57,164 nucleotides of DNA from an uncultured Candidatus Saccharibacteria bacterium (GCA_964448035.1 CAYUUY010000001.1:1-57164), one strand, 5' to 3'; counted from the first letter of the stretch, positions 3,793 to 28,860 are shown. Notes: generated by a model from the sequence alone, not told the origin. A program made the numbers and translations.

Positions 3793-6700
3793 TGTTCAGA
3801 CCTTAAATAAAGTAAAACTATCCTGTCTTGTAATAGACTGTGAAACATGTTCTTTTTTTCCTGATGGGAGAAAAATAAATCTTCAGACTAATTTTGATGA
3901 ATATGTTGAATTTGCCCAGGTAAAATTTATAGGAGCATATTCTTATCAAGACGATAGATATTATTTTTTGAACATGACCATAAATTCTGATAGAGAAATA
4001 GCCAAACGATTATTGGCTACTCATAAAACGATTGTTGGATTTAATTCAGCAGAATTTGATTTCCCAATTTTAAAAAACAATGACCTTACTGATACAGATG
4101 TTTGGTATACCCAAGTAGATTGTATGCATATTCTTGGCACTTCTAATGTAAAAAATCGAGGTGGTTTTGCTTATAAAAATCGTGGCGAATTGATGGGTTA
4201 TAAATTTAAAAATAATAAGTTACGCACTATGGCAGAAGCCATGGGATTAGAAACACAAAAAGGAGATATTGATTACACAATTTTTGAAAAAAATAGCTGG
4301 ACAAAAGAAGAACTTGAAGAAATTCAAATATATTTAAAATCTGATGTTATGGCTACTAAAGAAATGTTTGACAAATTATGGGAATATTGGATTCCATTTG
4401 TTGAAATGTTAGATGAAAAATCTGTTTATGACCTATCATGGATTAGATTATCAATTGCATCATTAACGTATAAATGTGCTTGTAACGTAATGGGTGTTGA
4501 ACCAACATACGGGGAACATCGTGGTAAAAAAGAAAAAATGGGAGGAACTGTTTTAAAACCCACGGTTGAAGAAGCAAAAGATGTTTGGTATATTGATTAT
4601 GCCTCTCTTTATCCTCATATTTTATGTATGTTTAATTTGTTTGCCGAAGTAGATGGCGATGATATTAATAAACCAAATATTTGGCACGGTAACAATGTTT
4701 TTAAGGTAAAAGGATATTATGACATATCAGAACCGCATATTTTGTCAAAACACGTCATGGAAAATCTAAAAGAACGTATTAATCTTAAAAAAACATCGCC
4801 AGATGATCCAATGATATATGCATTTAAGATTTTTTTAAACTGTTTTTCAAAAGACACAGACGTTCTAATGGCAGATAACCGTATTCAAAATATAAAAGAC
4901 TGTAAAATAGGAGAATTAGTTTATAGCATAAACCCAAAAACATTAATTGCAGAAAAAAAGAAGATAAAAAAAGTTTTTGAATATAACTATACAGGGGAAA
5001 TGCATCACTATAAGGGCAATTATTTTGATTTTAATGTTACACCAAATCACAGATTTCTTTTAGTTCATAAAAACAGAAAACAGTCACCTGTTTTTGTTGA
5101 ATCAATTGATATTCAAAACAAGTATACTTTGCCAATACATAAACCATTAAATAAATATAAAAAACAAATAAATATTTTAAATTATATCAACAAAGATGAA
5201 TTATTATATTCTATTAAACCATTGAATAAACATGGACGAACATGGTTATACGAAAATGGTTTGGAAAATATAAAAAAACAATATAACTGTAATGATAGGA
5301 ATTTTGTTTACTCATTCAATGATATAAAACATAGATTAAATAGTATATTAAAAAGCAAAAATTCAAGTATATATCTACTTAACAAAAAATATAAAACATC
5401 AAGAAAAATATCTGTTTTTTATGACAATAATACATTATCATATTTAATAGGAATATATTTGGCTGAAGGTTCTACATCTATTATAAGACCAAGATTATAT
5501 TCTAATGGAAATATTAGAGGAACAACATATAGCATATCTCTTTCACAATCTAAATCTAAAAACCCTATTATTTATAAAAAAATAACAGATGCATTGGATA
5601 AATGTAATTTAAAATATAGTGGTGGTAAAAAGGCTATTAAAATTTCTGGCCCCATTTTTTATGAGTTTATAGTTAATAATTTTGGAAAATTAGGATATAA
5701 ATCTTTCAATAACAAAAATATGTTTGACGATTTAAATATAAAAAAGGTTTTTGAAGGATTAATTGATGGTGATGGGTCAAAAAAACATAAACTATTTACA
5801 ACAAAATATGATTGTTTAAGAGACGATTTTATTGAACTATGCATGCGTTTAGGATATACATTATCATTAAAAAATGATGGATGTTGGAGAATAGTCTATA
5901 ATAACAACCCAAATTCTTTTAGAAAAGCAAACAGATCAATAAACGAATATAATGATAAAGTCTATTGTGTTGAGGTTGAAGATAACAACACATTAATGGC
6001 AGGAAGGAATAAAAAATTTAATTGGAGCGGAAATAGTTTATACGGCGTACTTAGGTCATTGATATTTGAAAAGGTTGGTGGTAAAAATGGTGGATGGGAT
6101 ACTTGTTGGCTAGGTCAGCAAATGCACGAATTAACCGTCGAGATGATGGATTCTTTTGGATTTGATACGCTATACGGAGATACGGACGGGTGCATGGTAC
6201 GGGCAAGACCTGGTACAGAAAATACTAGAGAGTATGTTTTAGAATGTCTCGAACAAATAGTCGATATTGTTCAAGATAATGTGCCTTTTCCAGTTGATAC
6301 ATTTAAAATTGATATAGAAAACCATTTAGATTATATTGCTTTTCCTCATAGTATGGAAAAAATATCTTTTAAAAGTATTGATTTAGATAAAGATGATGTT
6401 ATTAATAACGAAATCGAAGAGTATGTGTGGGTTTCTTTAAGAAAATATTATAAAGATTTCACAGATAAAGAAATTTTAGATATTCTGACAGAGTTAGTAT
6501 TAAAGAACGAAGATAAACCAGAGGATAAAATTAATCTTAAAATAAAAAATAGACTTATAACAGAATGGACAGGTAAAAAGAAAAACTATTTGTATATCTG
6601 TAAAGAAAAGGATAAGGAGTCTGGAGAACTTAAAGATGTAATAAAATTGGTCGGTCTTCCAATTAAAAAAGATAATGCAACAAAACTAGGAATTACTATT

Positions 6701-7168
6701 TATGAAGATGTTTTAAAATCAATGATATTAGAACGAAAGAATGCCAAATTTCCAAAAGAACAAATTAGTGAAATTATAAATAGATATTTAGCAAAACCAG
6801 ATGTCATGCAAATGATTTCTAGAGAATATAAAGTTAAACCTTTTATTACTTATGCTAAAGAAGGACAGATTCAGGCACAAATAAGTAAGCAATATTTTAA
6901 TGGGGAAGATGGTATTATTGATTTAATTAAGAATAATAAAATTGGCAAGGTCGGAGAAGGTGCTAAATATTGCACTGTTCAAGAGGCCATCGATTCTAAT
7001 TTAAAATCCGAAGATTTGGATTTAGAAAAATTATGGAATGAACTTGATCCGTTTGTTATTTATGTTCCAAAAGTGAAAAAAGAAAAAGCGGTTAAAGAGA
7101 AAAAGTCTAAAAAAGTTGCAAATAAAAAAAATATTTTAACAAAAAATTATGATGAGGTAACAATATAA
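3785..7168 (+). CDS. Family B DNA polymerase precursor containing one intein
   Basis: Exo I 'VIDCETCS', Exo II 'GFNSAEFDFPIL', Exo III 'YLKSDV', motif A 'DYASLYPHI', motif B 'KIFLN|SLYG' split by the insert, motif C 'YGDTDG'. Confidence 0.9.
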   Translation: MYNVQTLNKVKLSCLVIDCETCSFFPDGRKINLQTNFDEYVEFAQVKFIGAYSYQDDRYYFLNMTINSDREIAKRLLATHKTIVGFNSAEFDFPILKNNDLTDTDVWYTQVDCMHILGTSNVKNRGGFAYKNRGELMGYKFKNNKLRTMAEAMGLETQKGDIDYTIFEKNSWTKEELEEIQIYLKSDVMATKEMFDKLWEYWIPFVEMLDEKSVYDLSWIRLSIASLTYKCACNVMGVEPTYGEHRGKKEKMGGTVLKPTVEEAKDVWYIDYASLYPHILCMFNLFAEVDGDDINKPNIWHGNNVFKVKGYYDISEPHILSKHVMENLKERINLKKTSPDDPMIYAFKIFLNCFSKDTDVLMADNRIQNIKDCKIGELVYSINPKTLIAEKKKIKKVFEYNYTGEMHHYKGNYFDFNVTPNHRFLLVHKNRKQSPVFVESIDIQNKYTLPIHKPLNKYKKQINILNYINKDELLYSIKPLNKHGRTWLYENGLENIKKQYNCNDRNFVYSFNDIKHRLNSILKSKNSSIYLLNKKYKTSRKISVFYDNNTLSYLIGIYLAEGSTSIIRPRLYSNGNIRGTTYSISLSQSKSKNPIIYKKITDALDKCNLKYSGGKKAIKISGPIFYEFIVNNFGKLGYKSFNNKNMFDDLNIKKVFEGLIDGDGSKKHKLFTTKYDCLRDDFIELCMRLGYTLSLKNDGCWRIVYNNNPNSFRKANRSINEYNDKVYCVEVEDNNTLMAGRNKKFNWSGNSLYGVLRSLIFEKVGGKNGGWDTCWLGQQMHELTVEMMDSFGFDTLYGDTDGCMVRARPGTENTREYVLECLEQIVDIVQDNVPFPVDTFKIDIENHLDYIAFPHSMEKISFKSIDLDKDDVINNEIEEYVWVSLRKYYKDFTDKEILDILTELVLKNEDKPEDKINLKIKNRLITEWTGKKKNYLYICKEKDKESGELKDVIKLVGLPIKKDNATKLGITIYEDVLKSMILERKNAKFPKEQISEIINRYLAKPDVMQMISREYKVKPFITYAKEGQIQAQISKQYFNGEDGIIDLIKNNKIGKVGEGAKYCTVQEAIDSNLKSEDLDLEKLWNELDPFVIYVPKVKKEKAVKEKKSKKVANKKNILTKNYDEVTI
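4841..6034 (+). mobile_element. Intein (398 aa) with LAGLIDADG homing endonuclease in PolB motif B
   Basis: Starts with Cys ('CFSKDTDVLM'), block B 'TPNH', LAGLIDADG motifs 'YLIGIYLAEGS' and 'FEGLIDGDGS', ends 'FNWSGN' followed by +1 Ser. Removal restores 'KIFLNSLYG' (KxxxNSxYG). Confidence 0.85.
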
Positions 7169-7833
7169 TGTGGTCATATTATGGAACTAAAAAACGAATA
7201 GCCAAATATTATCCAAAACCGTTATATGATACAATTATTGAGCCATTTTGTGGTGCAGCACAATATTCTTTGTTTGGCGATAATTGGAAAAAAAAAGTTA
7301 TACTTATCGATAAATACAAAACAATCATAGATTTATGGAAATGGTTAATACAAGCCAAAAAGTGTGATATTTTAAATTTGCCCATATTAAAAATGAATGA
7401 ATCCGTTGATGATTATACACAACTTTGTTCAGAAGAAAAAAGTTTAATTGGATTTTATATAAATAGTGGTTCGGCAAGTCCCAAAAAAACAGCTAAAAAG
7501 TTCAATGGTTGGACTGAAAACAAAAAAAAAGATATTGCTAATAATTTATATAAAATTAGTCATTGGAAAGCATTTCATAATGAATATTTAAATATTCCCA
7601 ATAAACCATCCACTTGGTTTATTGACCCTCCATATCAATTTGGAGGACAATGGTATAGATAATCAAATAAAACCATTGATTTTAATAATTTAGCAGATTG
7701 GTGTAAATCAAGAGAAGGTCAAATTATTGTTTGTGAAAATAACAAAGCTGATTGGTTACCATTTAAAAATTTAGTTGAAATGAATGGTCAAAAACATAAA
7801 ACAATGGAAGTTATTTGGACAAAAGGTTGCTAA
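7168..7833 (+). pseudogene. N6-adenine DNA methyltransferase (Dam/D12 class) interrupted by in-frame TAA at 7660-7662
   Basis: 'EPFCGAAQ' (SAM motif I) and 'FIDPPY' (motif IV). After TAA, 56 more in-frame sense codons ('SNKTIDFNNLADWCKSREGQIIVCENNKADWLPF...EVIWTKGC') look like the normal C-terminus, ending at TAA 7831-7833. Confidence 0.7.
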
Positions 7834-7856
7834 AACAAATTAAAATATGTTATAAT
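7827..7856 (+). promoter_or_regulatory. Sigma70-like promoter, copy 1 of a repeated motif (TTGCTA-N18-TATAAT, extended -10 TGT)
   Basis: ttgcta 7827-7832, tataat 7851-7856, preceded by 'atatgt'; sits at a gene-cluster boundary. Confidence 0.5.
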
Positions 7857-7875
7857 TATACTGAGACAATAAACT

Positions 7876-8166
7876 ATGTCAATTTGTAGAATATGTAAAA
7901 CCGATGTTGATAAATATACAACTATGTTTGGTTATTGCTACGATTGTCAAATTAAACTTGGTGGAAAGACAAATACAAAGGAGTACCAAATGAACAAAAT
8001 AAAATGGAATGTTGAAGAAGAAAAAGGTTTTCTTTATGATGCAAAAGAGTACATTATATGTAAGGACTGTGGATATCTTGTTAAGAATCCAGATGAAATA
8101 TTAAAAAAGTGTCCTAGTTGTGGTATATCATACGAACAATCTTTAAGTGTTATTGTAAACAATTAA
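7876..8166 (+). CDS. double zinc-ribbon protein
   Basis: Two pairs of CxxC ('CRIC...CYDC' and 'CKDC...CPSC'). Confidence 0.55.
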   Translation: MSICRICKTDVDKYTTMFGYCYDCQIKLGGKTNTKEYQMNKIKWNVEEEKGFLYDAKEYIICKDCGYLVKNPDEILKKCPSCGISYEQSLSVIVNN

Positions 8167-8189
8167 GATAAGATAAAAATGCAAAAGTT

Positions 8190-8780
8190 TTGAATTTCAA
8201 GCAAGGCAGAATGATATATTTAGAAATGAAAACTAAAACTTGTACAAAATGCAAAATACCATTGCCTGTAACTAATTTTACTAATCATATTCAAAATAAA
8301 GATAGTTTAGATTGTTGGTGTAAGATTTGTAAAAACGGTCACATGGAAGAATATCGTCAAAAATATCCTTGGAGAAGAACATTAGATTCAATAAAGCAAA
8401 GATGTAACAATTCAAACAACAAACGGTATAAATACTATGGTGGGCGTGGTATTAAGTGTCTTATTACGGCAAAAGAATTAAAGAAATTGTGGAACCGAGA
8501 TAAAGCATATTTGATGGATAAGCCAAGTATTGATCGAGAAGAAAACGACGGACATTATGAGTACAGTAATTGTCGGTTTATTGAGAAAGGTGAAAACTCA
8601 GCTAAAGATAAAAGAAAATCAGTCCTTCAATATGATTTAAAAGGAAGATTTATTAAGGAATGGATAAGTCAATCTGAAGCACACAGATATTTAAAAATAG
8701 ATATTTCAAGTATATCACAGTGTTGTTCTGGCAAACGCAAAACGGCAGGTGGTTTTATTTGGGTAATACAAAATCAATAA
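8190..8780 (+). mobile_element. Free-standing homing endonuclease-like gene (degenerate HNH 'IDR' type with NUMOD/IENR-like DNA-binding tail)
   Basis: N-terminal 'KTKTCTKCK' zinc finger, 'RCNNSNNKRYKYYGGRGIKC', 'IDREENDGHYEYSNCRFIEKGENSAK', C-terminal 'VLQYDLKGRFIKEWISQSEAHRYL...SGKRKTAGGFIW'. These patterns recur in phage homing endonucleases. Confidence 0.55.
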
Positions 8781-8804
8781 CATATATTAAAAAGGAGAAT
8801 AACA

Positions 8805-9035
8805 ATGATATCAGCAAAAGACGTGTGGCGTGAAATTAAAAAACCGGAAGATATTAAAGAAGAAGATGCCATTTTAATGCTTATTTACAAAGCCGTATGT
8901 ATGGGTATAAGATTGCTTTTAGATGTAAGATATAAATTATATTATGGAGAACAAGCATTAGATGACAAAAAATCATCCAAAAAGATCGAAAAAGTTGTTG
9001 CTAATCCTGTTATTAAACCAACGGATTTAATGTAA
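8805..9035 (+). CDS. hypothetical protein
   Basis: 76-aa ORF with AAAGGAG RBS. Confidence 0.5.
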   Translation: MISAKDVWREIKKPEDIKEEDAILMLIYKAVCMGIRLLLDVRYKLYYGEQALDDKKSSKKIEKVVANPVIKPTDLM

Positions 9036-9036
9036 A

Positions 9037-9264
9037 ATGACAAGGGAATTCATTAAGAATGTTATCCCTACAGAATTAGGAGAGGTTAAACCATTTTCTC
9101 AGGTTTTATCTTCGACATTATCAACGAGAAAAGATGAGTTTAAATTAACAACTAAACTACTGGCCAGTTTAATTAGGAAAGCGAATTTAGCAAAGAAACA
9201 ATCGGAATTAGTTATTCAATTTTCTAATTATACAGTAACATGTCATATTGAGGAGAAAATATGA
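9037..9264 (+). CDS. hypothetical protein
   Basis: 75-aa ORF 2 nt after previous stop. Confidence 0.5.
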   Translation: MTREFIKNVIPTELGEVKPFSQVLSSTLSTRKDEFKLTTKLLASLIRKANLAKKQSELVIQFSNYTVTCHIEEKI

Positions 9265-9413
9265 TAGAAATTTTTAAAAGATTGTTCAAGAAGAAAACCC
9301 GTTATCACTATGTCGCAATATCTGAAAAAGATAAATCAGGACGATATCGTTATAAGATATATAAAGATGGAGTTCTAATTAAGGAAAACATATATATTGA
9401 TATTTGGCGTTAA
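9261..9413 (+). CDS. small hypothetical protein (50 aa)
   Basis: ATGA start/stop overlap with the upstream gene, GAGGAG RBS; below the ORF-track size cutoff; translated by hand. Confidence 0.4.
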   Translation: MIEIFKRLFKKKTRYHYVAISEKDKSGRYRYKIYKDGVLIKENIYIDIWR

Positions 9414-9431
9414 TATTAATTGGAGGAATAA

Positions 9432-10595
9432 ATGAGCAGTAAATTAATAGTTGAAATATGCAAGGTGGATGATGTTATTAAACACCCAAATGCAGATAAA
9501 CTTTCGATAATTGTTATAAAAGGTTGGAACTGTATCGTTAGTTTAGATCAATATAAAAAAGGCGATTTGGTTGTTTATTGTCCACCAGATTCTGTTATTC
9601 CTGATAATCTGATCGAGAAATATAATCTTGAGTTTCTAAAGAAAGATGGAAAAGTGGGAACTATTAAACTACGTAAATATATTTCTCAGGGTCTTATATT
9701 AGATGTTCCTAATAATATTAAAGAACCAAAAGAAGGAATGGACGTTGCTAATATTATGGGTATCACTAAATGGATACCACCACAATCTAAAAATAGTATA
9801 AATAATAACCAAGAAACTCTATATAAAACATACAAAAAATGGCGAAATGGTGGTATTTCTTTTTCAAGATTTATAAAGAAATCTTTTCATTTAATAAAGG
9901 ATGGTATCTTTAAACGTAAGAAAAAATTAAATCCTCTATTTGACAAGTACACAGATATAAACAATATTAAACACTATAATACTTTGTTTAAAGATGGTGA
10001 AGAGGTTGTTATATATGAAAAGCTCCATGGATCGAATGCAAGAGCATCTTATTTACCCAAAAAGAAATCAATTTTTAATTTCGGTGATAAATATGAATTC
10101 TGTATTGGATCGCACAATGTTCAATTAGTTGGTAATAGAGGTAAAAATAGTTTTTATGGATCAGATGTTTGGAGTAAATCAGCAGAGAAATATAAATTGG
10201 ATATTTTATTAAGAGATTATCCAAATTATATATTTTATTCAGAAGTGTATGGAAAGGGGATTCAGGATTTAGAATATGGATTAGATGATATAGAACTACG
10301 ATTTTTTGATATTAAGAATAAAAATATAGATAAATATCTTGATGATAGTGATTTTAAATCTATTTGTAATAAGTTGATGTTGCCAACAGTCCCATTATTA
10401 TATAAAGGCCCTTATAGTGCAGAAATAGTTAAACAATACACAAACGGTAAAAGCACAATTTATGAAAACCAAATAAGAGAAGGATGTGTAATTAGGCCAG
10501 TTAATGAAGAAATTGATCCAAGAGTAGGTAGAAAAATATTAAAGAGCATAAGCGAAGATTATTTATTAAGAAAGAATGGAACGGAGTTCAATTAA
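9432..10595 (+). CDS. RNA ligase (DRB0094-like family) with N-terminal tRNA-binding-type OB domain
   Basis: 'VIKHPNADKLSI...GDLVVYCPPDSVIP' OB module; nucleotidyltransferase motif I 'YEKLHGSN'; 'YSEVYGKGIQ' and 'REGCVIRP...KILKSI' downstream motifs. Confidence 0.75.
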   Translation: MSSKLIVEICKVDDVIKHPNADKLSIIVIKGWNCIVSLDQYKKGDLVVYCPPDSVIPDNLIEKYNLEFLKKDGKVGTIKLRKYISQGLILDVPNNIKEPKEGMDVANIMGITKWIPPQSKNSINNNQETLYKTYKKWRNGGISFSRFIKKSFHLIKDGIFKRKKKLNPLFDKYTDINNIKHYNTLFKDGEEVVIYEKLHGSNARASYLPKKKSIFNFGDKYEFCIGSHNVQLVGNRGKNSFYGSDVWSKSAEKYKLDILLRDYPNYIFYSEVYGKGIQDLEYGLDDIELRFFDIKNKNIDKYLDDSDFKSICNKLMLPTVPLLYKGPYSAEIVKQYTNGKSTIYENQIREGCVIRPVNEEIDPRVGRKILKSISEDYLLRKNGTEFN

Positions 10596-10987
10596 TGATA
10601 AATAAATACATATTAGAAAAAGCCATTTTAAAGGCAGAAAATAATGGCTATTTAATACCAACAGTTTTGTCAGAAATTTTTAAAGGTACTCAGGATGAAT
10701 CTAGAAATATAGATCGTTGTTGGAAAATCATTAAAATTGAAGACTTCTTGTATTTTGATAATAACGGAAGATGCGCAGAAGAAACATTATTTTTTAGTGT
10801 TAACGATATTATTTTCTCACACGAATTTGCAAAAGCGTTTTTTGGCGACAAAAAATATGTTCAATCTTTTAATCCTGCCTATTACACGTATCGTAATACA
10901 GATAAAAAACTGTGGGAAGAACATCTTCAGAATATGATATTAATGAACAATGATACACGAGTTAGATATTTGGAGAATTGGTTATGA
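10595..10987 (+). CDS. hypothetical protein, paralog of 14100-14450
   Basis: Shares 'ILxxAILKAExNG' and 'IIFSHEFAKAFFG' with the 14100 ORF. Confidence 0.6.
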   Translation: MINKYILEKAILKAENNGYLIPTVLSEIFKGTQDESRNIDRCWKIIKIEDFLYFDNNGRCAEETLFFSVNDIIFSHEFAKAFFGDKKYVQSFNPAYYTYRNTDKKLWEEHLQNMILMNNDTRVRYLENWL

Positions 10988-11244
10988 CCAGAGTTGTTCA
11001 TTGCAAAAAAGAAAAATATGATGTCTATATTGGACGTGGTTCAATATGGGGAAATCCTTTTATTATTGGTAAAGATGGATCAAGAGAAGATGTTATTTCT
11101 AAATATGAAGTTTATTTTTTAAATAACAAAAAACTAATAAGTCTATTACCACAACTTAAAGATAAAATATTGGGCTGTTTTTGTAAACCAAAAGCGTGTC
11201 ATGGAGATATATTAATAAAATATATAAAGGAATGGAATTTGTAA
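10984..11244 (+). CDS. DUF4326-like protein
   Basis: 'YDVYIGRGSIWGNPF' and 'GCFCKPKACHGDIL' match my recollection of the DUF4326 pattern; ATGA overlap start at 10984 (track start 10978). Confidence 0.6.
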   Translation: MTRVVHCKKEKYDVYIGRGSIWGNPFIIGKDGSREDVISKYEVYFLNNKKLISLLPQLKDKILGCFCKPKACHGDILIKYIKEWNL

Positions 11245-12349: not shown

Positions 12350-12498
12350 TGAGTGATCCAAAGAAAAATTTTATTTGTCCTATTTGTGGCCTAATCTCAA
12401 ATGATGGGAACAGAAGATTCGGTACAGATACCAAATGTATCAATTGTATGATAGAAAACAGAAATATAAATCAAGAACTGGAGAACAACAATGAATAA
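12349..12498 (+). CDS. small zinc-ribbon protein (49 aa)
   Basis: TAATG coupling; 'CPIC...CINC'; translated by hand. Confidence 0.4.
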   Translation: MSDPKKNFICPICGLISNDGNRRFGTDTKCINCMIENRNINQELENNNE

Positions 12499-19374: not shown

Positions 19375-19379
19375 ATATA

Positions 19380-19517: not shown

Positions 19518-20119
19518 TGAATATTAAAGAATTAGAAAATAAAATAGAATCTTTTACATCTGAAGTGGATAGATTGAAGGGTAAACTATCTACTCTTGAG
19601 GATCAGTTTGTTGAATCACAAGAACGATTTGATAATTTAAAAATTGAAAAAGAATTAAATAGTAAAGCAGTTGAAGTTCTTACATTAGTACAGGATTCAA
19701 CAAAAACATTAATTATTAATATGTTTGAATCGCTGGTAACACACGCTTTGCAATTTATCCATCAGTCAGACGAATACAAGTTTGAATTGGATTTTGGCAG
19801 AAGAGGAAATTTACCAGAATTATCATTTAACATTTTAACACCAGGTATGCAAGAACCACACGATATTATGACCACAAGAGGCGGCGGGACTTGTGACACA
19901 ACATCGTTAGCATTAAGAGAAGTTTTATTAGAAGTATCAAAGACAAATGGGTTTTTGTTTCTCGACGAGCCATTCAAACATTTAGATAATGACGAAACCG
20001 TAATGAAGGGTATGGAATTTATTAAAGAAATACAGAAAAAAACGGGCAGACAGATTATGATAATAACCCATAAAACAATAATCGCTGACAACGAGGAAGG
20101 TGTTGTATGGATCAAGTAA
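19517..20119 (+). CDS. Rad50/SbcC-like ATPase, C-terminal half (signature, Walker B, H-loop)
   Basis: Short coiled coil, then 'RGGGTCDTTSLALR' (signature-like), 'FLFLDEPFKHLD' (Walker B/D-loop), 'IMIITHK' (H-loop). Confidence 0.75.
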   Translation: MNIKELENKIESFTSEVDRLKGKLSTLEDQFVESQERFDNLKIEKELNSKAVEVLTLVQDSTKTLIINMFESLVTHALQFIHQSDEYKFELDFGRRGNLPELSFNILTPGMQEPHDIMTTRGGGTCDTTSLALREVLLEVSKTNGFLFLDEPFKHLDNDETVMKGMEFIKEIQKKTGRQIMIITHKTIIADNEEGVVWIK

Positions 20120-20889
20120 AAAAATGTGTTATATTGGGTGCAGGTCAATCGATGCAAGAAGGAATTGAAAAAGGTCTTTGGACTAAACTAGATAATATTG
20201 CTACGTTTGGTATTAACGAAGCTTTTCAATTTTTTAATCCCACATTGATAACATTTGTGGATTGGACATTTTATCGTGATAGATTTGATAAAATAAAAAA
20301 TTATCCATTAGTTATTGGAATTAATAATCCCGCCATAGGGTTTTGGTATACAGACAGAAAACGAGGAAGTTATCAAAAATGTGCTAAAGGTGACACTCTA
20401 GTAATGGTTAATGGAAGTTCGGAATATTTTGGAAAGGAATCATTAAAAAAAGGATGTTATACTGGAGTATTAGCTGGACTATTTACAACAACACTAGCAA
20501 TGGCATTAGGATATAACGAAATTTATTTGCTTGGCTGTGACATGGGCCAGAAAGATGGTAAAACCCATTTTTATCAAAATAACAATAAAGGAATTGGCAA
20601 TTTTACAGACGAAAATAATGTTGAAAGAACAGGAGTAGGATTTAACGTATGTGGACATTTTTCTACTGGAGTTTATAATAATACAGATGCATATATTCAA
20701 GATTTTTGGAAACCATATTTGACAGATACTGATGTTAAAATATATAATGTGTCAATGAATTCACGCATTGATACATTTGAAAAAATAACTTATGATGAGT
20801 TTTTTAAAAATATAGAAAACGAGGAAAAACTTGATCAAAATAAAGTTAGAGAACAAATTCGTATCAAAATTAAAACTGATTCCGATTAA
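20107..20889 (+). CDS. DUF115/MptE-like (Maf / GT42 sialyltransferase-like) glycosyltransferase, intein-free paralog
   Basis: 'CVILGAGQSM' (GNGPSL-like N-terminus), 'YTGVLAGLFTTTLAMALGYNEIYLLGCDMG' resembling the '...TSG...ALGYKEIYLSGIDFY' region I recall from Campylobacter Cst-II. Confidence 0.5.
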   Translation: MDQVKKCVILGAGQSMQEGIEKGLWTKLDNIATFGINEAFQFFNPTLITFVDWTFYRDRFDKIKNYPLVIGINNPAIGFWYTDRKRGSYQKCAKGDTLVMVNGSSEYFGKESLKKGCYTGVLAGLFTTTLAMALGYNEIYLLGCDMGQKDGKTHFYQNNNKGIGNFTDENNVERTGVGFNVCGHFSTGVYNNTDAYIQDFWKPYLTDTDVKIYNVSMNSRIDTFEKITYDEFFKNIENEEKLDQNKVREQIRIKIKTDSD

Positions 20890-21029
20890 AACATATATTG
20901 AAAAATTTCTAGGGATTATAAATGTTATGGTTGTTATCTTTAATATAATATTATTGTTTCTTTTCTTATGTGGGATCAGTCTCAAAATTGGCATTCATAA
21001 ATATTGGTATAAACTGTTTGGATATAAAA

Positions 21030-22991
21030 ATGAGTAAAATAAAAAATATTTTAAATGATGGTTTTTATGATGTATTTGGTGAATTAATAAATCAAAATTT
21101 CATAGATATTTATATAACTAAATGCATGAATCAATTAAAAGGAATAAAAGAACAAACAAGTTCACAAGAAATTCCTATTACATCATACCCAATTGCAAAA
21201 TATGAATTGTTACAAAACAAAAAAGGACTATATGTAAAAACAGTACCCGTTAATTATAATCCATGTTTTGTTGTAGCCGGTGGCCCTTCCTTAAAAAACT
21301 TTAATTTTGATTTATTAAAACATAAAACTACTTTTGTATCAAATAAATCCATTTTTGATGTTCCAAATACTAACTATTTTGTTACGACGGATTATACTTT
21401 TTTGAGTTATCTTAAAAAGAATAATCTATATAATAAATGGCGAAGTAATAAAGCAGAAAAATATTTTGTTGCTAACTGTATATCGGATACAATACAAAAC
21501 ATAAATGGACAAATAACTGATACAAAATATAATCTAACTTACGATTTACAGGATTTTGATAAGATAGTTATTTGTAAATCGGCAAAAAACGTGGGTTTTG
21601 ATTTTGACAATTTTAATAGTGGATATAATTCGGGTTTTTGTTTTGATGATAAAACGCAGATTCTTACTAAAAGAGGATGGAAATATTTTAAAAATTTAAA
21701 ACATAATGACACTGTATTAAGTTTAGACCCAAAAACCCAAATAGCGGATTATTATCCTATTTCAGACATTCAATGTTTTGATTATAGTGGTGATTTATAT
21801 TGTAAATCTGTATCAAGAGGACATCAAACCGATTTTGCAGTTACACCAGATCATTCTATGTTTGTTTATAGTAGAGATAGAAAAAAATATGAATTTAAAC
21901 CAGCAAAATTTTTTAATGACCACCCTAAAAATGACCATTACACATTAAAAACCGATTTTAAATGGGTAGGAAAACACGCTGATTATATTAAAATAAACGG
22001 AAAACAATATACTGGTTGGGGAAATTATAAAAAAATTCAATACAAAATAAAATCCGAAATATTTATGCAGTTTTTAGGATGGTATTTAAGCGATGGTAAC
22101 AATTATTGTGGTATAAATAGTTGGGGAGAAACATACAGAATTACTATTTATCAAAGTAAAAAATCTAAACACCTTGATGAAATTAGGTCTATTCTGTCAC
22201 AATTACCATTCAAATATGTAGAATCAGAAAATAAAAATATGCTTTCTTTTCGTATAACAAACAATGTGCTAGGAAAATATATAAAAAAACATTGTGGAGG
22301 ATCTGGTGTGTCCAAAAAAATACCCAATTATCTGAAATTTTTAACACCAGATCTAATTCATTTATTTTTAATGGCATATATGAATGGTGATGGAACTAAA
22401 GTGAAAACTGGCTATACTGTTTCCACGATAAGTAAAAAAATAGGATATGGAATGCTGGAATTGTTTTTAAAAGCAGGATACAAAAGAGTAAATTGCACAC
22501 GTGTAAAAAATAAAAAACACAGAGTTTTTCCTGGTGGGTTTAAAGCAAATTTAAAAAAACATAACTATGTAGTGCACGCAACAAATAATACTACAGAAGA
22601 ACGATTGATATTTAATCCAGATACTATATCTTATAGTGGTAAGGTATACGATGTAACCGTTGAACCACACCATACCATTTTTGTTAAGAGAAACGGTATG
22701 CCATTTTGGTCAGGAAATTGTTCATTTCAAATGGCATTAATAATGGGTTATAATCCAATTTATTTATTGGGATTTGATATGAATTGTGATCAAAAAGATA
22801 CCCATTATCATGACGGATACGGAAAAAGCAAAGAAAAAATGGATCAAAATCTTCTAAATTATTCAACACATTTTAAACATATATTACAAAAATTAAGAAT
22901 AGATAGACCAAATTTGCAAATTATTAGTTGCTCAAAAACAAGCATTTTAAATAAAATAATAGATTATAAAGATATAAAGGATGTTTTATGA
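21030..22991 (+). CDS. DUF115/GT42-like glycosyltransferase precursor containing one intein
   Basis: 'FVVAGGPSLKN' N-terminal motif. Exteins rejoin as 'GYNSGF|CSFQMALIMGYNPIYLLGFDMN', paralogous to 20107-20889. Start taken at 'MSKIKNIL' (track start 20970). Confidence 0.6.
   Translation: MSKIKNILNDGFYDVFGELINQNFIDIYITKCMNQLKGIKEQTSSQEIPITSYPIAKYELLQNKKGLYVKTVPVNYNPCFVVAGGPSLKNFNFDLLKHKTTFVSNKSIFDVPNTNYFVTTDYTFLSYLKKNNLYNKWRSNKAEKYFVANCISDTIQNINGQITDTKYNLTYDLQDFDKIVICKSAKNVGFDFDNFNSGYNSGFCFDDKTQILTKRGWKYFKNLKHNDTVLSLDPKTQIADYYPISDIQCFDYSGDLYCKSVSRGHQTDFAVTPDHSMFVYSRDRKKYEFKPAKFFNDHPKNDHYTLKTDFKWVGKHADYIKINGKQYTGWGNYKKIQYKIKSEIFMQFLGWYLSDGNNYCGINSWGETYRITIYQSKKSKHLDEIRSILSQLPFKYVESENKNMLSFRITNNVLGKYIKKHCGGSGVSKKIPNYLKFLTPDLIHLFLMAYMNGDGTKVKTGYTVSTISKKIGYGMLELFLKAGYKRVNCTRVKNKKHRVFPGGFKANLKKHNYVVHATNNTTEERLIFNPDTISYSGKVYDVTVEPHHTIFVKRNGMPFWSGNCSFQMALIMGYNPIYLLGFDMNCDQKDTHYHDGYGKSKEKMDQNLLNYSTHFKHILQKLRIDRPNLQIISCSKTSILNKIIDYKDIKDVL
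21639..22718 (+). mobile_element. Intein (360 aa) with LAGLIDADG homing endonuclease in a DUF115/GT42-like gene
   Basis: 'CFDDKTQILTKRGW' N-terminus, 'TPDH' block B, 'FLGWYLSDGN' and 'FLMAYMNGDGT' LAGLIDADG motifs, 'VYDVTVEPHHTIFVKRNGMPFWSGN' then +1 Cys. Confidence 0.8.
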
Positions 22992-23128
22992 AAGTTAAAG
23001 ATTTGATTTGGGAATTACAACAAATACATAATCAAGAAAAAGAAGTGGCTTTTGGTAATTCTAACGCTAATGAGTCTTTTATACATAGTGTTGTTGAAAC
23101 AGAATTTAGGGTTTATATTAAAGATTAA
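22988..23128 (+). CDS. small hypothetical protein (46 aa)
   Basis: ATGA coupling with the upstream gene; translated by hand. Confidence 0.35.
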   Translation: MKVKDLIWELQQIHNQEKEVAFGNSNANESFIHSVVETEFRVYIKD

Positions 23129-23149
23129 TTGTAAGGAAAGGAACAAATA

Positions 23150-23830
23150 ATGAGTGAAAAAATTTCGATTTTAATTCCTGTTTATAACAGGGAAGGTTTT
23201 ATTGAACGAGCAATAAATAGTAGTTTAAATCAAACATATAAGAATTTACAAATTCTTGTTTATGATGACGGATCGAATGATAAAACCAGAGAAATTGTGA
23301 TTGATATAGCACAAAAGGATAATCGTGTAAAATTGTTTTGTAATACACCAACAAAAAACGAAGGAGTAGGAAAGGCCCGAAATTTGTTATTAAAATTTTG
23401 CGATACAAAGTATGCTATATGGCAAGATAGTGACGACATTTCTGCACCAACACGAATCGAAGAACAATTAAAAGAGATGACTGAAGACAAAATGGTTTAT
23501 TGTACGTGGGAAAATTTTAAGACTAAAGTGCCAGGAACAACAAGAGGGTTTGCAACTCTTATGTTTCCAGTAAACAAGGGTGTTCTTTTTCCTGAAGATA
23601 TGAAGTTTGGCGGGGAAGATCAATGTTGGAGAGATGAAATGGAAAAGATTTATCCTACATCCGATGTAAATCAAGTTCTTTATTCAATAGATTTTCACGG
23701 AAACCGAATAGGAACGTGGAAACGAAAGATTGACAAAAATTGGAACGGAAAATACGATTTGAATGATATTAAAGACTTGTCATATGAAGATGCAATAAAA
23801 AAATATATGAACGAATATCAAACCAAATAA
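23150..23830 (+). CDS. Family 2 glycosyltransferase (GT-A)
   Basis: 'ISILIPVYNREGFIERAINSSLNQTY', 'YDDGSNDKT', 'QDSDD' DxD motif. Confidence 0.8.
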   Translation: MSEKISILIPVYNREGFIERAINSSLNQTYKNLQILVYDDGSNDKTREIVIDIAQKDNRVKLFCNTPTKNEGVGKARNLLLKFCDTKYAIWQDSDDISAPTRIEEQLKEMTEDKMVYCTWENFKTKVPGTTRGFATLMFPVNKGVLFPEDMKFGGEDQCWRDEMEKIYPTSDVNQVLYSIDFHGNRIGTWKRKIDKNWNGKYDLNDIKDLSYEDAIKKYMNEYQTK

Positions 23831-23839
23831 AGGAAATAT

Positions 23840-24463
23840 ATGACTCCAGAACTTTTGCTATTCTATCAAAAACTTGTTAATAAACAAAATTTCTCCCTTG
23901 TCCGTTTTGGTGATGGAGAACATAACATTATGGACAATGTTGCATGTAATCGAAAAGGTTTTGATTTTGATCCTAAAGATGCTAGAGATCAAGAATTTAA
24001 AAGAGATTTACGTGAAGCATTTAAATTTAAAAGTCCACGATATTATAAAGGGCTGGATTACACGAATATAGAAGAAAACATAGTTTATGCTTGTCTTTTT
24101 GTTAATAATAGTTATTTAGATTTTTTGGACAATTTCTCACCTCTTTTTGAAAACTGTATTTTTGTTGGTAATGAATTAGGAATGGATTGGCAATTGCCAT
24201 TTAAACCACAAAAATATATTAGAATTAAAGAAAACGCTTGGAAGGACTATAATTCTAATTTATTAAATCTTTTTTTATCTAATTATTTAACCAATAAGAA
24301 TAATGAAATTGTATTAGTTGCAGGTGGCCCCATGAGTAATGTTTTAATTTATAAATTATATAAAAATAATCCTAATAATACTTATATAAATGTTGGAAGT
24401 GTATTTGATCCTCACATTTTTGGTTTTCTTACTCGCAAATATCAAGAAAGGTTATGTACATGA
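23840..24463 (+). CDS. GT-D-like (DUF1792-type) glycosyltransferase
   Basis: N-terminal 'SLVRFGDGEHNIM' resembles the DUF1792 'RxGDGE' signature; located between GT2 and HAD genes. Confidence 0.45.
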   Translation: MTPELLLFYQKLVNKQNFSLVRFGDGEHNIMDNVACNRKGFDFDPKDARDQEFKRDLREAFKFKSPRYYKGLDYTNIEENIVYACLFVNNSYLDFLDNFSPLFENCIFVGNELGMDWQLPFKPQKYIRIKENAWKDYNSNLLNLFLSNYLTNKNNEIVLVAGGPMSNVLIYKLYKNNPNNTYINVGSVFDPHIFGFLTRKYQERLCT

Positions 24464-24843
24464 AATACAAAGGATATTTAGCATTTGATTTTGATGGTGT
24501 AATAGCATCATATAATAGACCTTTTATTATAGATAAATTGGGTAAACCACAAAAATCTGTAATAGAAACAATTCGTTATTTTTACGACCAAGGATATTAT
24601 ATACTAATTTTTACTGGACGATTAGAAACTGTCAAATTTACAAAATGGTTAGAAAAAAATAATGTACCTTATCATGGTGTAAATGTACAACCAAGCAATA
24701 TGGCTGGAACAAATAATGATAAACCTTTTTATAATGTAATTATAGACGATAAGGCTGTTAATTTTCATTGGGAAAACAACCATAAATCTAAAGATGAATT
24801 AATTAGTGAAATTGAAAGGAAGTTAGAATGGGCGAAGGAATAA
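24454..24843 (+). CDS. HAD-superfamily phosphatase-like protein
   Basis: Motif I 'AFDFDGVI', 'IFTGR', terminal 'IIDDKA'. Confidence 0.55.
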   Translation: MYMKYKGYLAFDFDGVIASYNRPFIIDKLGKPQKSVIETIRYFYDQGYYILIFTGRLETVKFTKWLEKNNVPYHGVNVQPSNMAGTNNDKPFYNVIIDDKAVNFHWENNHKSKDELISEIERKLEWAKE

Positions 24844-25529
24844 ATGATATCGTTGTGAGAGCATGTTTATCAACTAATTTTGGAGATAATCTTAACTCAG
24901 AGTTAGTTCGATTAATTTCTGGACAAACACCAAAATTGGTAAATAACAGATTTGGCAATCTAGAAAAAGAAACTATCTATATGGCAATAGGCAGTGTTCT
25001 TGGATGGGCTACTGAAGAAACTGAAGTCTGGGGAGCAGGATTTATTTCTGATTCAGATTTTGTTACAGATATACCAACGCCAAAAAGAATCCATGCCGTT
25101 AGAGGGCCAGAAACAAGAAATATTTTAATAACTAAAGGAATCAGATGTCCTGAAATATTTGGTGACCCCGCATTATTGATGCCCAGATTTTATAATCCAA
25201 AATTAGAAAAGAAATATAAAATATCAGTAATTCCACATGCAATTGATAGAGTATTAATTCCAGAATTAACCAAATCATTTCCTAATGCTCATTTTATTGA
25301 TGTAACACAAGATGTATATAAATTTATAGACGAGGTTATTAAATCAGAATATATTATTTCATCTGCCCTTCATGGGTGTATTACTGCGTATGCATATGGT
25401 GTTCCTTATGAACATCAAAAATTTTCAGACAAGGTCTTGGGAAATGGGTTCAAATTCGAAGATTTTGAAAAAAGCAAACAATATATTGATTTAGATAAAT
25501 TACTAAAAGTCTGTCCATTTGTTCAATAA
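24828..25529 (+). CDS. Polysaccharide pyruvyl transferase-like protein
   Basis: 'NFGDNLN', 'HAVRGPETR', 'GDPALL', 'ISSALHGCITAYAYGVP' match the PS_pyruv_trans pattern as I recall it. Confidence 0.55.
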   Translation: MGEGINDIVVRACLSTNFGDNLNSELVRLISGQTPKLVNNRFGNLEKETIYMAIGSVLGWATEETEVWGAGFISDSDFVTDIPTPKRIHAVRGPETRNILITKGIRCPEIFGDPALLMPRFYNPKLEKKYKISVIPHAIDRVLIPELTKSFPNAHFIDVTQDVYKFIDEVIKSEYIISSALHGCITAYAYGVPYEHQKFSDKVLGNGFKFEDFEKSKQYIDLDKLLKVCPFVQ

Positions 25530-25777
25530 TAACATTTGTTATTGTTGAAGCCGGAGACACAACTGGAAATTTTCTTAGAAACATAAATTTAAATTATATA
25601 ATAAACCAGAACTTGATTTATAACCTCTACAGGATATGTGTCTGTTTAGAAAGGAAAACAATGATAAAATATTTAAAAATATTATATGAATTTATTATAA
25701 ATTTTGATAATAATTGTTTTGGGCCATCTAAGAAAAGAAAAATTGATAAAGCTGCAAAAAATCCATTTATATAAAAA

Positions 25778-25807
25778 TTGACAAAAACAAAATAAATATG
25801 GTATAAT
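25778..25807 (+). promoter_or_regulatory. Sigma70-like promoter, copy 3 (TTGACA-N18-TATAAT, extended -10 TGG)
   Basis: ttgaca 25778-25783, tataat 25802-25807, in a 574-nt gap with no long ORF (small ORF 25661-25774 is listed under rejected); followed by GGAGG RBS and ATG 25830. Confidence 0.55.
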
Positions 25808-25829
25808 TATAATAAATGGAGGATTTATT

Positions 25830-25961
25830 ATGACAAAATATAAATCGGTATTAAGAATAGTTTGGAGTATAAAACAGGCTTCTTTATTTTTTAAAATTAA
25901 TTTTACATTGATTGTTTTTATAAAAACAATAAAGAAATGGATAAATAATGACTATCAATGA
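25830..25961 (+). CDS. small hypothetical protein (43 aa, partly hydrophobic)
   Basis: Strong GGAGG RBS 25817-25821; translated by hand. Confidence 0.4.
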   Translation: MTKYKSVLRIVWSIKQASLFFKINFTLIVFIKTIKKWINNDYQ

Positions 25962-26106
25962 AAGAGTAAAAATCGACAACACAATTTATTATGTTATTGC
26001 CCAAACAGATAACGAAGTTTGTGTATTACAAAATTTTGAATTTACAGACGGTATAACAAGACAACTCAAAATATGGACGCATAATTATGAAAGGGTAACT
26101 GAATGA
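25948..26106 (+). CDS. small hypothetical protein (52 aa)
   Basis: ATGA coupling to the 26103 gene; translated by hand. Confidence 0.4.
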   Translation: MTINERVKIDNTIYYVIAQTDNEVCVLQNFEFTDGITRQLKIWTHNYERVTE

Positions 26107-26567
26107 ACAGAAAAACACTAGAAAGAATATCTGTATTAGAAACTAGAATTTTCGAATTAGAGAATAATTTAAAGAAATATTTTATTCCTAATCAAGAGTT
26201 TAAGGAATTAAAAAATCGGTTAATTAATATTGTAAATGATATGAATTTTGATTATCCTTTTGAATTAGATGAGGGCAGTACATGTTTCAATTTTTATAAA
26301 TTAATAGACATGAAAGAAACAGTCATTGAGCATGGTAATGTGTATATCTTATTGACAGGTAGTCGTGTAGATAATGACTTAGCTTTATGGGATTTAAAAC
26401 AATTAAATCCAAATTATTATGATATCAATAATCTATTACTTTCTAATAATATAAAAAGATTATACGATAATAGAATAAACGCAGATGAGGCTTATTTGAT
26501 AGCATTAAATGATATAAACCAAACCGAAATACCAATTGAAAACATTGCAAAATTTGTTAGGAAATAA
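26103..26567 (+). CDS. hypothetical protein
   Basis: 154-aa ORF. Confidence 0.55.
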   Translation: MNRKTLERISVLETRIFELENNLKKYFIPNQEFKELKNRLINIVNDMNFDYPFELDEGSTCFNFYKLIDMKETVIEHGNVYILLTGSRVDNDLALWDLKQLNPNYYDINNLLLSNNIKRLYDNRINADEAYLIALNDINQTEIPIENIAKFVRK

Positions 26568-26568
26568 A

Positions 26569-28860
26569 ATGAAAATATGTCTTATTTATCTTCCACACCC
26601 TTATTTAGTTGATCCAGAGGCCCAAGCCCCTTTGGGTCTACTTTATATTGCTAGTTCATTAGAACAAACCAAACAACATGATGTTATTTTAAAAAACTAT
26701 TCTTCTTATACTGAAGAAGAGGCAATCAATGATTTACCGGAGTGTGATGTTTATGGTATAACAGTAACAGCACTAGAATTATTGCAGTCTAATGATTTTG
26801 CAAAGAAAATAAAAAATAAATATCCTAATAGTAAAGTCATTCTTGGTGGGCCTGGAACATTTAGCGATCAATATGTCGATTGGATAGTTATTGATTCTAT
26901 ATTAAAGGGTGAAGGAGAAATTACCATACATACTATCTTAGACGATATTTTGTTAGGTAATGAACAAAAAATTTATAAAGGAGAAGTTGTTAAAAATCTA
27001 GACATAATTCCTTTTCCAGCTAGGCATTTGTTAAAAGATAAACAAGGCGGTCATATTTTTGCAAATCATACAACCTTCGATAAAACATTTAGTATGGAAT
27101 ATAAAGGAAAAGGAACCACATCAATATTAACAAGTAGGGGATGCGGATGGGGTTGCAGTTTTTGTTCAAGTCCTGGAATGAACCAAAAATTACGATTTCG
27201 TAGTCCTCAAAATGTATATAATGAAATAAAACATATTGTAGATACATATAAAATAAAACAGTTTCGTTTTTCAGATGAAATGTTTACGGCTAATAAAAAA
27301 CATGTATTGGAAATTTGCGAATTAATAAAACCATTGGGTATTGTGTGGAGAATTTCGGCAAGGGTCAAACCACTATCAATGGAAATATTAAAGGCAATGA
27401 AAAAGGCGGGATGTGTTGAGATAAGTTTTGGTGTGGAATCGTTTGATGATGATGTATTGAAAGGACTAAATAAGGGGACAACAGCAGAGGATAATGCCAA
27501 AGCGTTACAGATGGCAAAGGACGCAGGATTAATGGTTCGTGTTTTATTCATGATCAGGACTCCTTGGCAAACCATTGATACTGTTTATAAGAATATTGAT
27601 TGGCTAAAAAAGGTTCCATATGATACAATTGCGTGTACATCATTCGTTCCTTTGCCTGGATGTTTTGATACAAAAACAGAAATTTTAACCAAATTGGGAT
27701 GGAAAAAATATAACGAAATTGGTTATAATGATTATTTTTTAACAAGAAACATAAATAATGAAATTGAATATCAAAAACCGTTGAAAATAACTAAAGAAAA
27801 ATATTCTGGAGAAATGATAAAACAAAAAAGTAAATGTATAGACTATTTTGTTACACCAAATCACAAATTTTTAATCAACACATATTATAAAAACGATTTT
27901 CAGTTTAGATATGCCAAAGATATAAAAATAAACAATAGAATTCCAAATATTGGAAAATGGATAGGTATAACACCAGAACCAATAATTTATATAGGAAAAC
28001 ATACCTTTAATATGAAAGATTGGGTAGCTTTTTTAGGTATTTTTATATCTGAAGGATGTACATTTAAATGTAAAAATTATATATATAGGGTGCAAATAAC
28101 ACAATCTAAAAAGGATAATGTTAGAAAAATAAAAAATCTTTTAAATGACATGGGATTAATATATTCTTATAACAACGATAAAGATTTTGTTATAAATTCA
28201 AAAGATTTATATTTAAAATTAAAACCGTTGGGAAAAAGTTGGGAAAAATATATTCCCAATGATATAAAACAGTTGAATTCGGATTATTTAAAAATATTAT
28301 ATAAATGGTTAATAATGGGTGATGGACATTCAAGAACAAAATATTATGACCAAACATATTATTCAACATCAATTCGTTTGGTAAATGATATATTAGAAAT
28401 TTTATTAAAAATAGGTAAATGTGGTAATTATTCTGTACGAGAACCAAAAGAATGTTATATTAGAGGAAGAAAAATATCATCTAAAAGATTGCTATATACC
28501 ATACAAGAAAGAAAAAGCAAATTTACAAAACTTCACACTCAAAACCATAAACCTCAAAAAGTTCATTATGATAACACTGTTTGGTGTGTTTCTGTTCCTA
28601 ATAAGGTTATATATGTAAGAAGAAATGGTAAATGTTATTTTTCTGGAAATAGTGATATTTGGAAAAAACCAGATGATTACAATATTGAAATTTTAAATCG
28701 TAATATCCAAGACTACAATTTTTATTTTTATGGGCGAGATGGAAAAAATGATTTAAAGGATATTATTAAAATAAAGGATCGTTCACTTGAAGAATTAAAT
28801 GCAGAATCTACTTATTTTCGAAACTGGATAGAACAGCAAGGTAAAACCAATAAAGGATAA
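26569..28860 (+). CDS. B12-binding (class B) radical SAM enzyme precursor containing one intein
   Basis: N-terminal cobalamin-binding-like domain ('ICLIYLPHP...APLGLLYIASSL', 'GGPG'), radical SAM cluster 'SRGCGWGCSFC' (CxxxCxxC). Exteins rejoin as 'FVPLPG|SDIW'. Start at 'MKICLIY' (track start 26536). Confidence 0.8.
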   Translation: MKICLIYLPHPYLVDPEAQAPLGLLYIASSLEQTKQHDVILKNYSSYTEEEAINDLPECDVYGITVTALELLQSNDFAKKIKNKYPNSKVILGGPGTFSDQYVDWIVIDSILKGEGEITIHTILDDILLGNEQKIYKGEVVKNLDIIPFPARHLLKDKQGGHIFANHTTFDKTFSMEYKGKGTTSILTSRGCGWGCSFCSSPGMNQKLRFRSPQNVYNEIKHIVDTYKIKQFRFSDEMFTANKKHVLEICELIKPLGIVWRISARVKPLSMEILKAMKKAGCVEISFGVESFDDDVLKGLNKGTTAEDNAKALQMAKDAGLMVRVLFMIRTPWQTIDTVYKNIDWLKKVPYDTIACTSFVPLPGCFDTKTEILTKLGWKKYNEIGYNDYFLTRNINNEIEYQKPLKITKEKYSGEMIKQKSKCIDYFVTPNHKFLINTYYKNDFQFRYAKDIKINNRIPNIGKWIGITPEPIIYIGKHTFNMKDWVAFLGIFISEGCTFKCKNYIYRVQITQSKKDNVRKIKNLLNDMGLIYSYNNDKDFVINSKDLYLKLKPLGKSWEKYIPNDIKQLNSDYLKILYKWLIMGDGHSRTKYYDQTYYSTSIRLVNDILEILLKIGKCGNYSVREPKECYIRGRKISSKRLLYTIQERKSKFTKLHTQNHKPQKVHYDNTVWCVSVPNKVIYVRRNGKCYFSGNSDIWKKPDDYNIEILNRNIQDYNFYFYGRDGKNDLKDIIKIKDRSLEELNAESTYFRNWIEQQGKTNKG
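27661..28650 (+). mobile_element. Intein (330 aa) with LAGLIDADG homing endonuclease in a radical SAM gene
   Basis: 'CFDTKTEILTKLGW', 'TPNH', 'FLGIFISEGC' and 'WLIMGDGHS', 'VWCVSVPNKVIYVRRNGKCYFSGN' then +1 Ser. Confidence 0.8.

Follow-up and report, generated by a model that had tools for sequence, protein, structure and literature searches.

Phage inteins that splice without the usual penultimate histidine have precedents. Mycobacteriophage class 1 inteins often lack this residue and carry Gly, Lys or Ser instead (Kelley et al. 2016, mBio, PMC5050341, which points to earlier examples from archaea and chloroplasts: Chen et al. 2000; Wang and Liu 1997). In the same study the Bethlehem RDF intein, with a penultimate Gly, spliced to completion and its G316H variant accumulated precursor (PMC5050341); protein splicing without the penultimate His is also on record elsewhere (PMC7664689). 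Here we describe three inteins with a penultimate Gly in a single stretch of 57,164 nucleotides assigned to an uncultured Candidatus Saccharibacteria bacterium (GCA_964448035.1, CAYUUY010000001.1:1-57164; this whole stretch is called 'the window' below). They interrupt genes for a DNA polymerase of family B (PolB), an MptE-like DUF115 protein and a B12-binding radical SAM enzyme (rSAM). An initial annotation had explained them by ectopic transposition of one intein within the genome. We find instead that they are distant members of one large phage intein family, each very probably acquired independently by horizontal transfer.

The Bethlehem intein is located in a phosphoesterase gene and ends in ...VWCLRVPNGRFFIEDGGKIHLTGN|S (TGN|S). 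Like the window inteins it is phage-borne, starts with Cys1, closes with an x-T/S-G-N|S end and sits in a conserved enzyme motif, and it shares Cys at position F:4 with the PolB and rSAM inteins. By BLASTP its blocks F-G are 38% identical to those of the rSAM intein. It differs, however, in host gene and site, in a diverged N-terminus (CSWTNARAVT) and in a central region for which BLASTP gives no alignment to the rSAM intein; moreover, the window phage is AT-rich and unrelated. In tblastn, the rSAM intein also matches, over the full length and at 25-28% identity, inteins of cultured phages: those of Herelleviridae, Tenacibaculum phages and Lak phages (Stau2/Romulus RNR-alpha, phiSNIID NAMPT, PTm1 RNR-beta). 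These have in common with it a CY/F..T.ILT start and an R-R-x-x...[C/A/S]-G-N|[S/C/T] end, with VCGN|S in Stau2 RNR-alpha, IAGN|C in PTm1 RNR-beta and VSGN|T in phiSNIID NAMPT. Their host genes are different from ours, and in the database records the host-enzyme annotation extends over the entire precursor, with the intein unmarked.

Two general precedents bear on the origin of co-resident inteins. According to the intein-allele rule, same-site inteins of different genomes are more alike than different-site inteins of one genome (Ogata et al. 2005, PMC549080; PMC10710043). In Anaeramoeba, on the other hand, gene-to-gene spread has been proposed, where co-resident inteins branch together and share target motifs such as P-loops (PNAS 2023, PMC10710043). 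The window is like Anaeramoeba in holding homologous inteins in non-homologous proteins of one genome; unlike those of Anaeramoeba, its inteins do not branch together and their target sites are unrelated.

Three inteins at conserved motifs of unrelated proteins

The three inteins span positions 4841-28650 of the window, 4841 being the first base of the first and 28650 the last base of the third, and the coordinates and peptides first quoted for them are exact. All are in frame, start with Cys1, carry TPNH or TPDH in block B and end in SGN before a +1 Ser, Cys and Ser, respectively. Translation confirmed that the penultimate residue (G:6) is Gly and not His in all three. Each contains two LAGLIDADG motifs, in which an acidic residue is present and followed by Gly, as expected from the endonuclease domains attributed to them at the outset. 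Pfam likewise bore out that the host proteins are unrelated. Every insertion falls in a conserved host motif, and intein-free homologues or, in one case, a paralogue are continuous across the site.

The PolB precursor is encoded on the + strand at 3785..7168 (1127 residues, with a Pfam PolB exonuclease/RNase H-like N-terminus; the spliced product would have 729 residues). By translation and boundary mapping, its intein occupies 4841..6034 on the same strand (398 residues, precursor residues 353-750). The junctions, KIFLN|CFSKDTDVLM...NWSGN|SLYGV, place it in polymerase motif B (KIFLN|SLYG), of the form KxxxN|SxYG, which we take to be the archaeal 'pol-b' site; a literature search on the pol-a/b/c nomenclature found nothing. 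Besides Cys1 and a block B of TPNH, the intein has Cys at F:4, a WSGN end and a +1 Ser. Its LAGLIDADG motifs lie on the + strand at 5435-5473 (LSYLIGIYLAEGS, ending in AEG) and 5747-5779 (VFEGLIDGDGS, ending in GDG). This is the most divergent of the three inteins: about 110 extra residues separate block B from the first LAGLIDADG motif, and the motif before block G, GRNKKFNWSGN, is a degenerate form of RRNGKxxW[S/C/T]GN. Searches with it gave three weak partial matches among phage sequences and marginal PI-SceI matches in PDB, and identified no relative at a pol-b-type site in either. Two intein-free PolB homologues from IMG/VR (L001 and L002, 51% and 47% identical to the spliced exteins) span motif B in a single high-scoring segment pair.

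The second precursor is an MptE-like/DUF115 protein by Pfam, similar to CST-type transferases, encoded on the + strand at 20970..22991; where translation begins is uncertain, the alternatives being a GTG at 20970 and an ATG at 21030 (residue 21). The intein (21639..22718, + strand, 360 residues, precursor residues 224-583) has the junctions NSGF|CFDDKTQILT...FWSGN|CSFQ. It carries the canonical Asp at F:4 and a His-His pair in block F, is followed by a +1 Cys and has KRNGMPFWSGN ahead of its C-terminal splice site. The LAGLIDADG motifs are found on the + strand at 22062-22100 and 22362-22397 and end in SDG and GDG. A paralogous MptE/CST-I-like gene at 20107-20889 adjoins this gene and is uninterrupted at the homologous motif, TGVLAGLF|TTTLAMALGYNEIYLLGCDM; the second gene of the pair alone holds the intein. 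Searches of viral contigs with the DUF115 and rSAM exteins returned no related loci, and tblastn of both against phages returned distant homologues only.

The third precursor, with Pfam Radical_SAM and B12-binding domains, is encoded on the + strand at 26536..28860 (774 residues from a TTG, with an ATG at residue 12). Its intein (27661..28650, + strand, 330 residues, precursor residues 376-705) has the junctions PLPG|CFDTKTEILT...YFSGN|SDIW. It has Cys at F:4, no block-F His, the C-terminal motif RRNGKCYFSGN with an FSGN end, and a +1 Ser; its LAGLIDADG motifs (28021-28059 and 28294-28329, + strand) end in SEG and GDG. A metagenome scan with the spliced rSAM sequence retrieved eight close relatives, 61-77% identical. 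All six that cover the site (L007-L012, 66-77% identical) are intein-free, with FVPLPG|(S/T)(D/E)IW continuous. One of these contigs, L010, keeps the gene order rSAM-methyltransferase-hexapeptide acyltransferase seen in the window. After this block, at about 2300-2912, it has an HNH-type endonuclease-like open reading frame (ORF; …CQICG…HHIDYNKENCNEDNLITLCQGCH) that is absent at the corresponding window position. What looked like an intein match in L010 was spurious, the alignment lying within the rSAM gene.

An AlphaFold model of the rSAM intein, computed with our 28-sequence family alignment (A1) as input, had a mean predicted local distance difference test score (pLDDT) of 93.8. The predicted fold is a HINT fold. 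Its top PDB matches were the inteins TliVMA, PhoVMA, PI-SceI, PI-PfuI and PI-PkoII, with I-DmoI coming next as a match to the endonuclease core; against the solved inteins, Foldseek gave E-values from 7.5e-16 to 3e-11 and TM scores of about 0.6-0.65. A sequence-profile search of PDB, whose hits include PI-PkoII and I-DmoI, agrees with the fold matches. The five solved inteins have the same architecture of HINT domain and double LAGLIDADG motif, at an identity of only 9-17%, and they have the canonical penultimate His.

On this anatomy, all three window inteins are predicted to be bifunctional class 1 inteins, with a HINT splicing domain and a double-motif LAGLIDADG homing endonuclease. Two His residues, one penultimate and one in block F, are usually credited with assisting Asn cyclisation. 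Since splicing without the penultimate His is documented (PMC5050341, PMC7664689), the missing G:6 His does not exclude membership of class 1. Because of Cys F:4 we also considered class 3 (WCT; mycobacteriophage DnaB, MchDnaB1), with which the family shares this residue, a hydroxyl or thiol at G:5 and the association with phages. Class 3 was ruled out: Cys1 is present (and kept in 307 of 308 family members), B:12 is Phe, Met and Phe in the three inteins and not Trp, and G:5 is Ser rather than Thr. Each intein would then be excised after translation by the class 1 pathway, that is, an N-S acyl shift at Cys1, trans-thioesterification to the +1 Ser or Cys, Asn cyclisation without the usual penultimate His, by analogy with the related phage intein in which this was shown, and a final acyl shift to a peptide bond. 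For the PolB and rSAM inteins, we infer splicing competence from their intact frames and from conservation within the family.

A large phage family with a penultimate glycine

How similar are the three inteins to one another? The initial annotation described a close resemblance at every splicing block. This is correct for the blocks, and close likeness is confined to them: the DUF115 and rSAM inteins are 27% identical over their full length, the PolB intein aligns to either in a patchy manner at 24-30% identity (BLASTP), and phmmer scores reach 61 bits for the DUF115/rSAM pair and 21 and 15 bits for PolB against the other two. Homology nevertheless extends beyond the universal intein blocks. 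A family profile built from 120 members, with the window sequences left out, matched all three inteins end to end (profile positions 1-337 of 337). The scores were 331, 265 and 153 bits, the last for PolB, with E-values of 9e-94, 1e-73 and 2e-39 (database size 1.8 billion), so that the likeness of the three is far above chance. Both the A1 alignment and the profile search indicate that their endonuclease domains are homologous as well.

Three homologue searches collected 49 proteins which, with the exception of one DUF115 homologue discussed below (P0001), are 25-36% identical and belong to unrelated hosts. These include terminase, dCTP deaminase-like protein, metallophosphoesterase, prohead protease, GTP cyclohydrolase I, ThyA, ThyX, RuvC, N6-methyltransferases, an MBL-fold hydrolase, sugar epimerases/dehydratases, and C1 and M23 peptidases. 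In other genomes (P0011, P0013, P0018), family members are inserted at DPPY|C of methyltransferases. Of 47 inteins extracted, 46 end in x-G-N/Q, mostly as RRNGKxxW[S/C/T]GN. Invariant in A1 are C1, the block-B His, the Gly/Gly and Asp-Gly columns of the LAGLIDADG motifs, and the penultimate Gly.

The family is very large. Among 1.84 billion cluster representatives, the profile retrieved 49,295 proteins at E<=1e-3, a tier which surely takes in generic inteins and LAGLIDADG proteins, 26,243 at <=1e-10 and 8,706 at <=1e-30. The top 150 proteins, whose hosts include Dam methylase, GT4 glycosyltransferases, ThyX, ClpP and RNA polymerase beta (RpoB), contain 258 full copies. A Cys start is present in 257 of these and a penultimate Gly in 250 (SGN 93, CGN 67, TGN 37); top profile hits are biased to the consensus, so this 97% should be read as a ceiling for the family at large. 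Several copies may reside in one protein: two full-length copies occur in 97 of the 150 proteins and three in 7, and some top hits (P0050, P0054, P0056 and others) reach about 3,700 residues with up to 8-10 stretches matched by the profile.

In cultured phages, tblastn with the rSAM intein matched 118 records, led by phages of Mycobacterium (42), Staphylococcus (38) and Prevotella (Lak phages, 13), with Gordonia, Tenacibaculum, Synechococcus and others making up the rest. The exact consensus motif, scanned as a degenerate DNA pattern back-translated from RRNGKxxWSGN, was present in at least 120 short IMG/VR stretches, and only 2 of the 120 stretches listed hold two full-length family inteins, in both cases within a few kilobases. 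The pair in L031 is 26% identical, and its members rank each other 79th of 88 and 17th of 87; like the window inteins, they are far from being nearest neighbours. The pair in L037 is 41% identical and ranks 3rd-4th, which makes it a better candidate for local duplication.

In an enlarged sample of 308 inteins, Cys1 is present in 307, Cys F:4 in 90% and the penultimate Gly in 97%, while the block-F His is absent from about 64%. Cys was already reported to be the second most common residue at F:4 (Mills et al. 2014); Asp at this position is limited to 17 of the 308 members, the DUF115 intein included. An R-R-N-G-K motif and a Trp at G:4 are strongly conserved across the sample, and 8 members have a terminal Gln, as in the terminase P0002 (WSGQ|S) and in P0049 (WCGQ|C). 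The family signature is Cys1, a TxxH block B, usually Cys F:4, and a C-terminal RRNGKxxW[S/C/T]GN followed by Ser, Cys or Thr. The SGN ending, initially described as non-canonical, is the commonest ending of a very large family and is neither a rare marker nor private to this genome.

Origin of the three copies

The clearest case is that of the DUF115 intein. Its top match is P0001, a DUF115 homologue from another metagenome whose intein likewise sits at NSGF|C, and the two inteins pair in 200 of 200 neighbour-joining bootstraps. Identity is 51% between the inteins but only 35% between the exteins, which argues for horizontal homing rather than co-divergence. Judged by sequence, the DUF115 and P0001 inteins are classical alleles at one site. 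Such a pairing with a same-site intein from elsewhere is the outcome that the initial annotation had named as refuting its own interpretation.

The three window inteins, by contrast, never group with one another. In a first sample of 50 inteins, each ranked the other two 35th to 49th of 49 by BLASTP score. In the enlarged sample of 308, mutual ranks fell between 141 and 307 of 307, with scores of 33-89 bits against a family-wide median of 97, which places them among the family's least similar pairs. No two window inteins were paired in any of 200 bootstraps of a neighbour-joining tree (332 trimmed columns, simple distances). The three reconstructed empty sites, FLN|SLY, SGF|CSF and LPG|SDI, show no resemblance by eye in DNA or peptide. 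The survey of relatives for presence or absence also counts against copying within the genome, with empty sites in rSAM homologues 66-77% identical and PolB homologues 47-51% identical. The rSAM and PolB inteins must have been gained, or lost from all sampled relatives, far more recently than the co-resident inteins diverged. Being sporadic on a timescale shorter than that of their mutual divergence, they leave no window intein as a recent donor of another.

What stands of the initial claim of one lineage in three unrelated genes is thus a single homologous family, not a single intein copied within the genome. In our favoured account, independent acquisition from other phages, the DUF115 intein would have arrived by homing into an allelic site, and the rSAM and PolB inteins as site-specific invasions. 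Homing would be driven by the endonuclease, through cleavage of alleles that lack the intein when phages co-infect a cell. The motif of the MptE/CST-like transferase and PLPG|S of the B12 radical SAM enzyme appear to be undescribed insertion sites.

Several points weigh against this account. No same-site allele was found in the homologue searches for the rSAM or the PolB intein, and both of these lack the block-F His as well as the penultimate His. The trees are neighbour-joining trees with simple distances, computed on a sample picked by similarity to the queries; the homologue search relies on shared 5-mers and the exhaustive search on a profile, so that closer relatives could be missed. To these we must add the possibility of an older spread within the phage lineage, considered below.

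Could the three inteins instead represent something mechanistically new? It is possible, though we consider it rather unlikely, that they sample a distinct subclass, not characterised as such, defined by Cys1, Cys F:4, a penultimate Gly and R-R-N-G-K before W-[S/C/T]-G-N. Asn cyclisation might then be driven by other residues, for instance the two Arg or a hydroxyl or thiol at G:5, and Cys F:4 might be catalytic or act as a redox switch. The very wide host range could reflect an unusual ease in colonising new sites of phage genomes, and the window would record repeated invasions by inteins of the phage pool rather than copying within the genome. A literature search on penultimate glycine in inteins returned nothing relevant.

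We consider improbable an ancient intragenomic spread in a distant phage ancestor, followed by vertical inheritance and divergence down to the family background. The G+C content of the inteins (0.23-0.29) matches that of the genome (0.27-0.30) and gives no compositional sign of a recent import, as such a history would have it. However, in this scenario all six rSAM relatives sampled, and both PolB relatives, would have to have lost the intein. It also conflicts with the DUF115 intein being better conserved than its exteins relative to P0001, which indicates horizontal homing, and with the many closer relatives that each window intein has in other hosts and genomes.

Recent ectopic transposition, by which one resident intein would have been copied into two non-homologous genes of the same phage, is the explanation given in the initial annotation, and we find it very improbable. 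It draws on family-specific traits common to all three inteins beyond the universal blocks (the penultimate Gly, an R-x-N-G/K-K-like block G and a CF..T..L N-terminus), on their location within 24 kb on one strand, and on the gene-to-gene spread proposed in Anaeramoeba (PMC10710043). Against it stand a mutual identity of only 24-30%, mutual ranks of 141-307 among 307 with scores no higher than the family background, the lack of any bootstrap that pairs the inteins, and three target DNAs that show no resemblance by eye. The intein-free rSAM homologues add that the gain is recent relative to mutual divergence, so that neither co-resident can be the donor. Finally, it is scarcely credible that the SGN end and the block likeness are convergent or fortuitous in three unrelated families: the PolB intein is only weakly similar to the other two by phmmer (15-21 bits) and has a different spacer between block B and the endonuclease, but all three match a profile built without them end to end at E <=2e-39, and their endonuclease domains are homologous.

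Phage context and significance of the loci

The window is part of an AT-rich tailed-phage genome. Its G+C content is 27-34%, and a long block of + strand genes is followed by a block on the - strand. Coding strand and GC/AT-skew change sign together at about 37000-38000, where a + strand replication/modification module meets a - strand tail module. The phage assignment is based on PHROGs and Pfam, according to which the + strand module encodes an ATP-dependent DNA ligase, a SprT-like protein, a kinase, an HD protein, PolB, an RNA ligase, exonucleases and SbcCD-like proteins. On the - strand lie a tail-fibre-like lectin-domain protein (39687-42674) and the tape-measure protein (46772-49783). 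Megablast of the whole window against phages gave no match, so that no cultured phage is closely related to the source. When all six frames were scanned by phmmer with the three inteins, no fourth copy emerged. Rfam and tRNA scans gave no hits either, and a group I intron or RNA element, sought in these scans, was rejected.

Two of the intein-bearing genes lie in a glycan/modification cluster at about 20000-32600. This cluster contains two sialyltransferase-like MptE (MptE/CST-I-like) genes, a GT2, a polysaccharide pyruvyl transferase, the B12-rSAM gene, a SAM methyltransferase, a SPASM-domain protein, a hexapeptide acyltransferase and a GT1-like gene. Elsewhere, an ORF for a Dam-like methyltransferase of the D12 class (7168-7662) ends about 9 residues past its DPPY motif (…FIDPPYQFGGQWYR and the stop codon) and looks truncated. 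A small Zn-ribbon ORF (7876-8166) and a NUMOD1/I-HmuI-like ORF of homing-endonuclease type (8190-8780) follow downstream. The arrangement at 7168-8780 may represent a methyltransferase gene that a free-standing homing endonuclease has split or truncated.

On the reading that the three inteins were acquired independently, the window illustrates the intein-allele rule rather than an ectopic transposition caught in the act. The matched intein-free alleles of the rSAM (L007-L012) and PolB (L001) genes are natural candidate substrates for homing-endonuclease assays. The family with penultimate Gly and F:4 Cys is very large and dominated by non-canonical catalytic residues, which makes it relevant both to the mechanism of protein splicing and to the mining of inteins for protein engineering.

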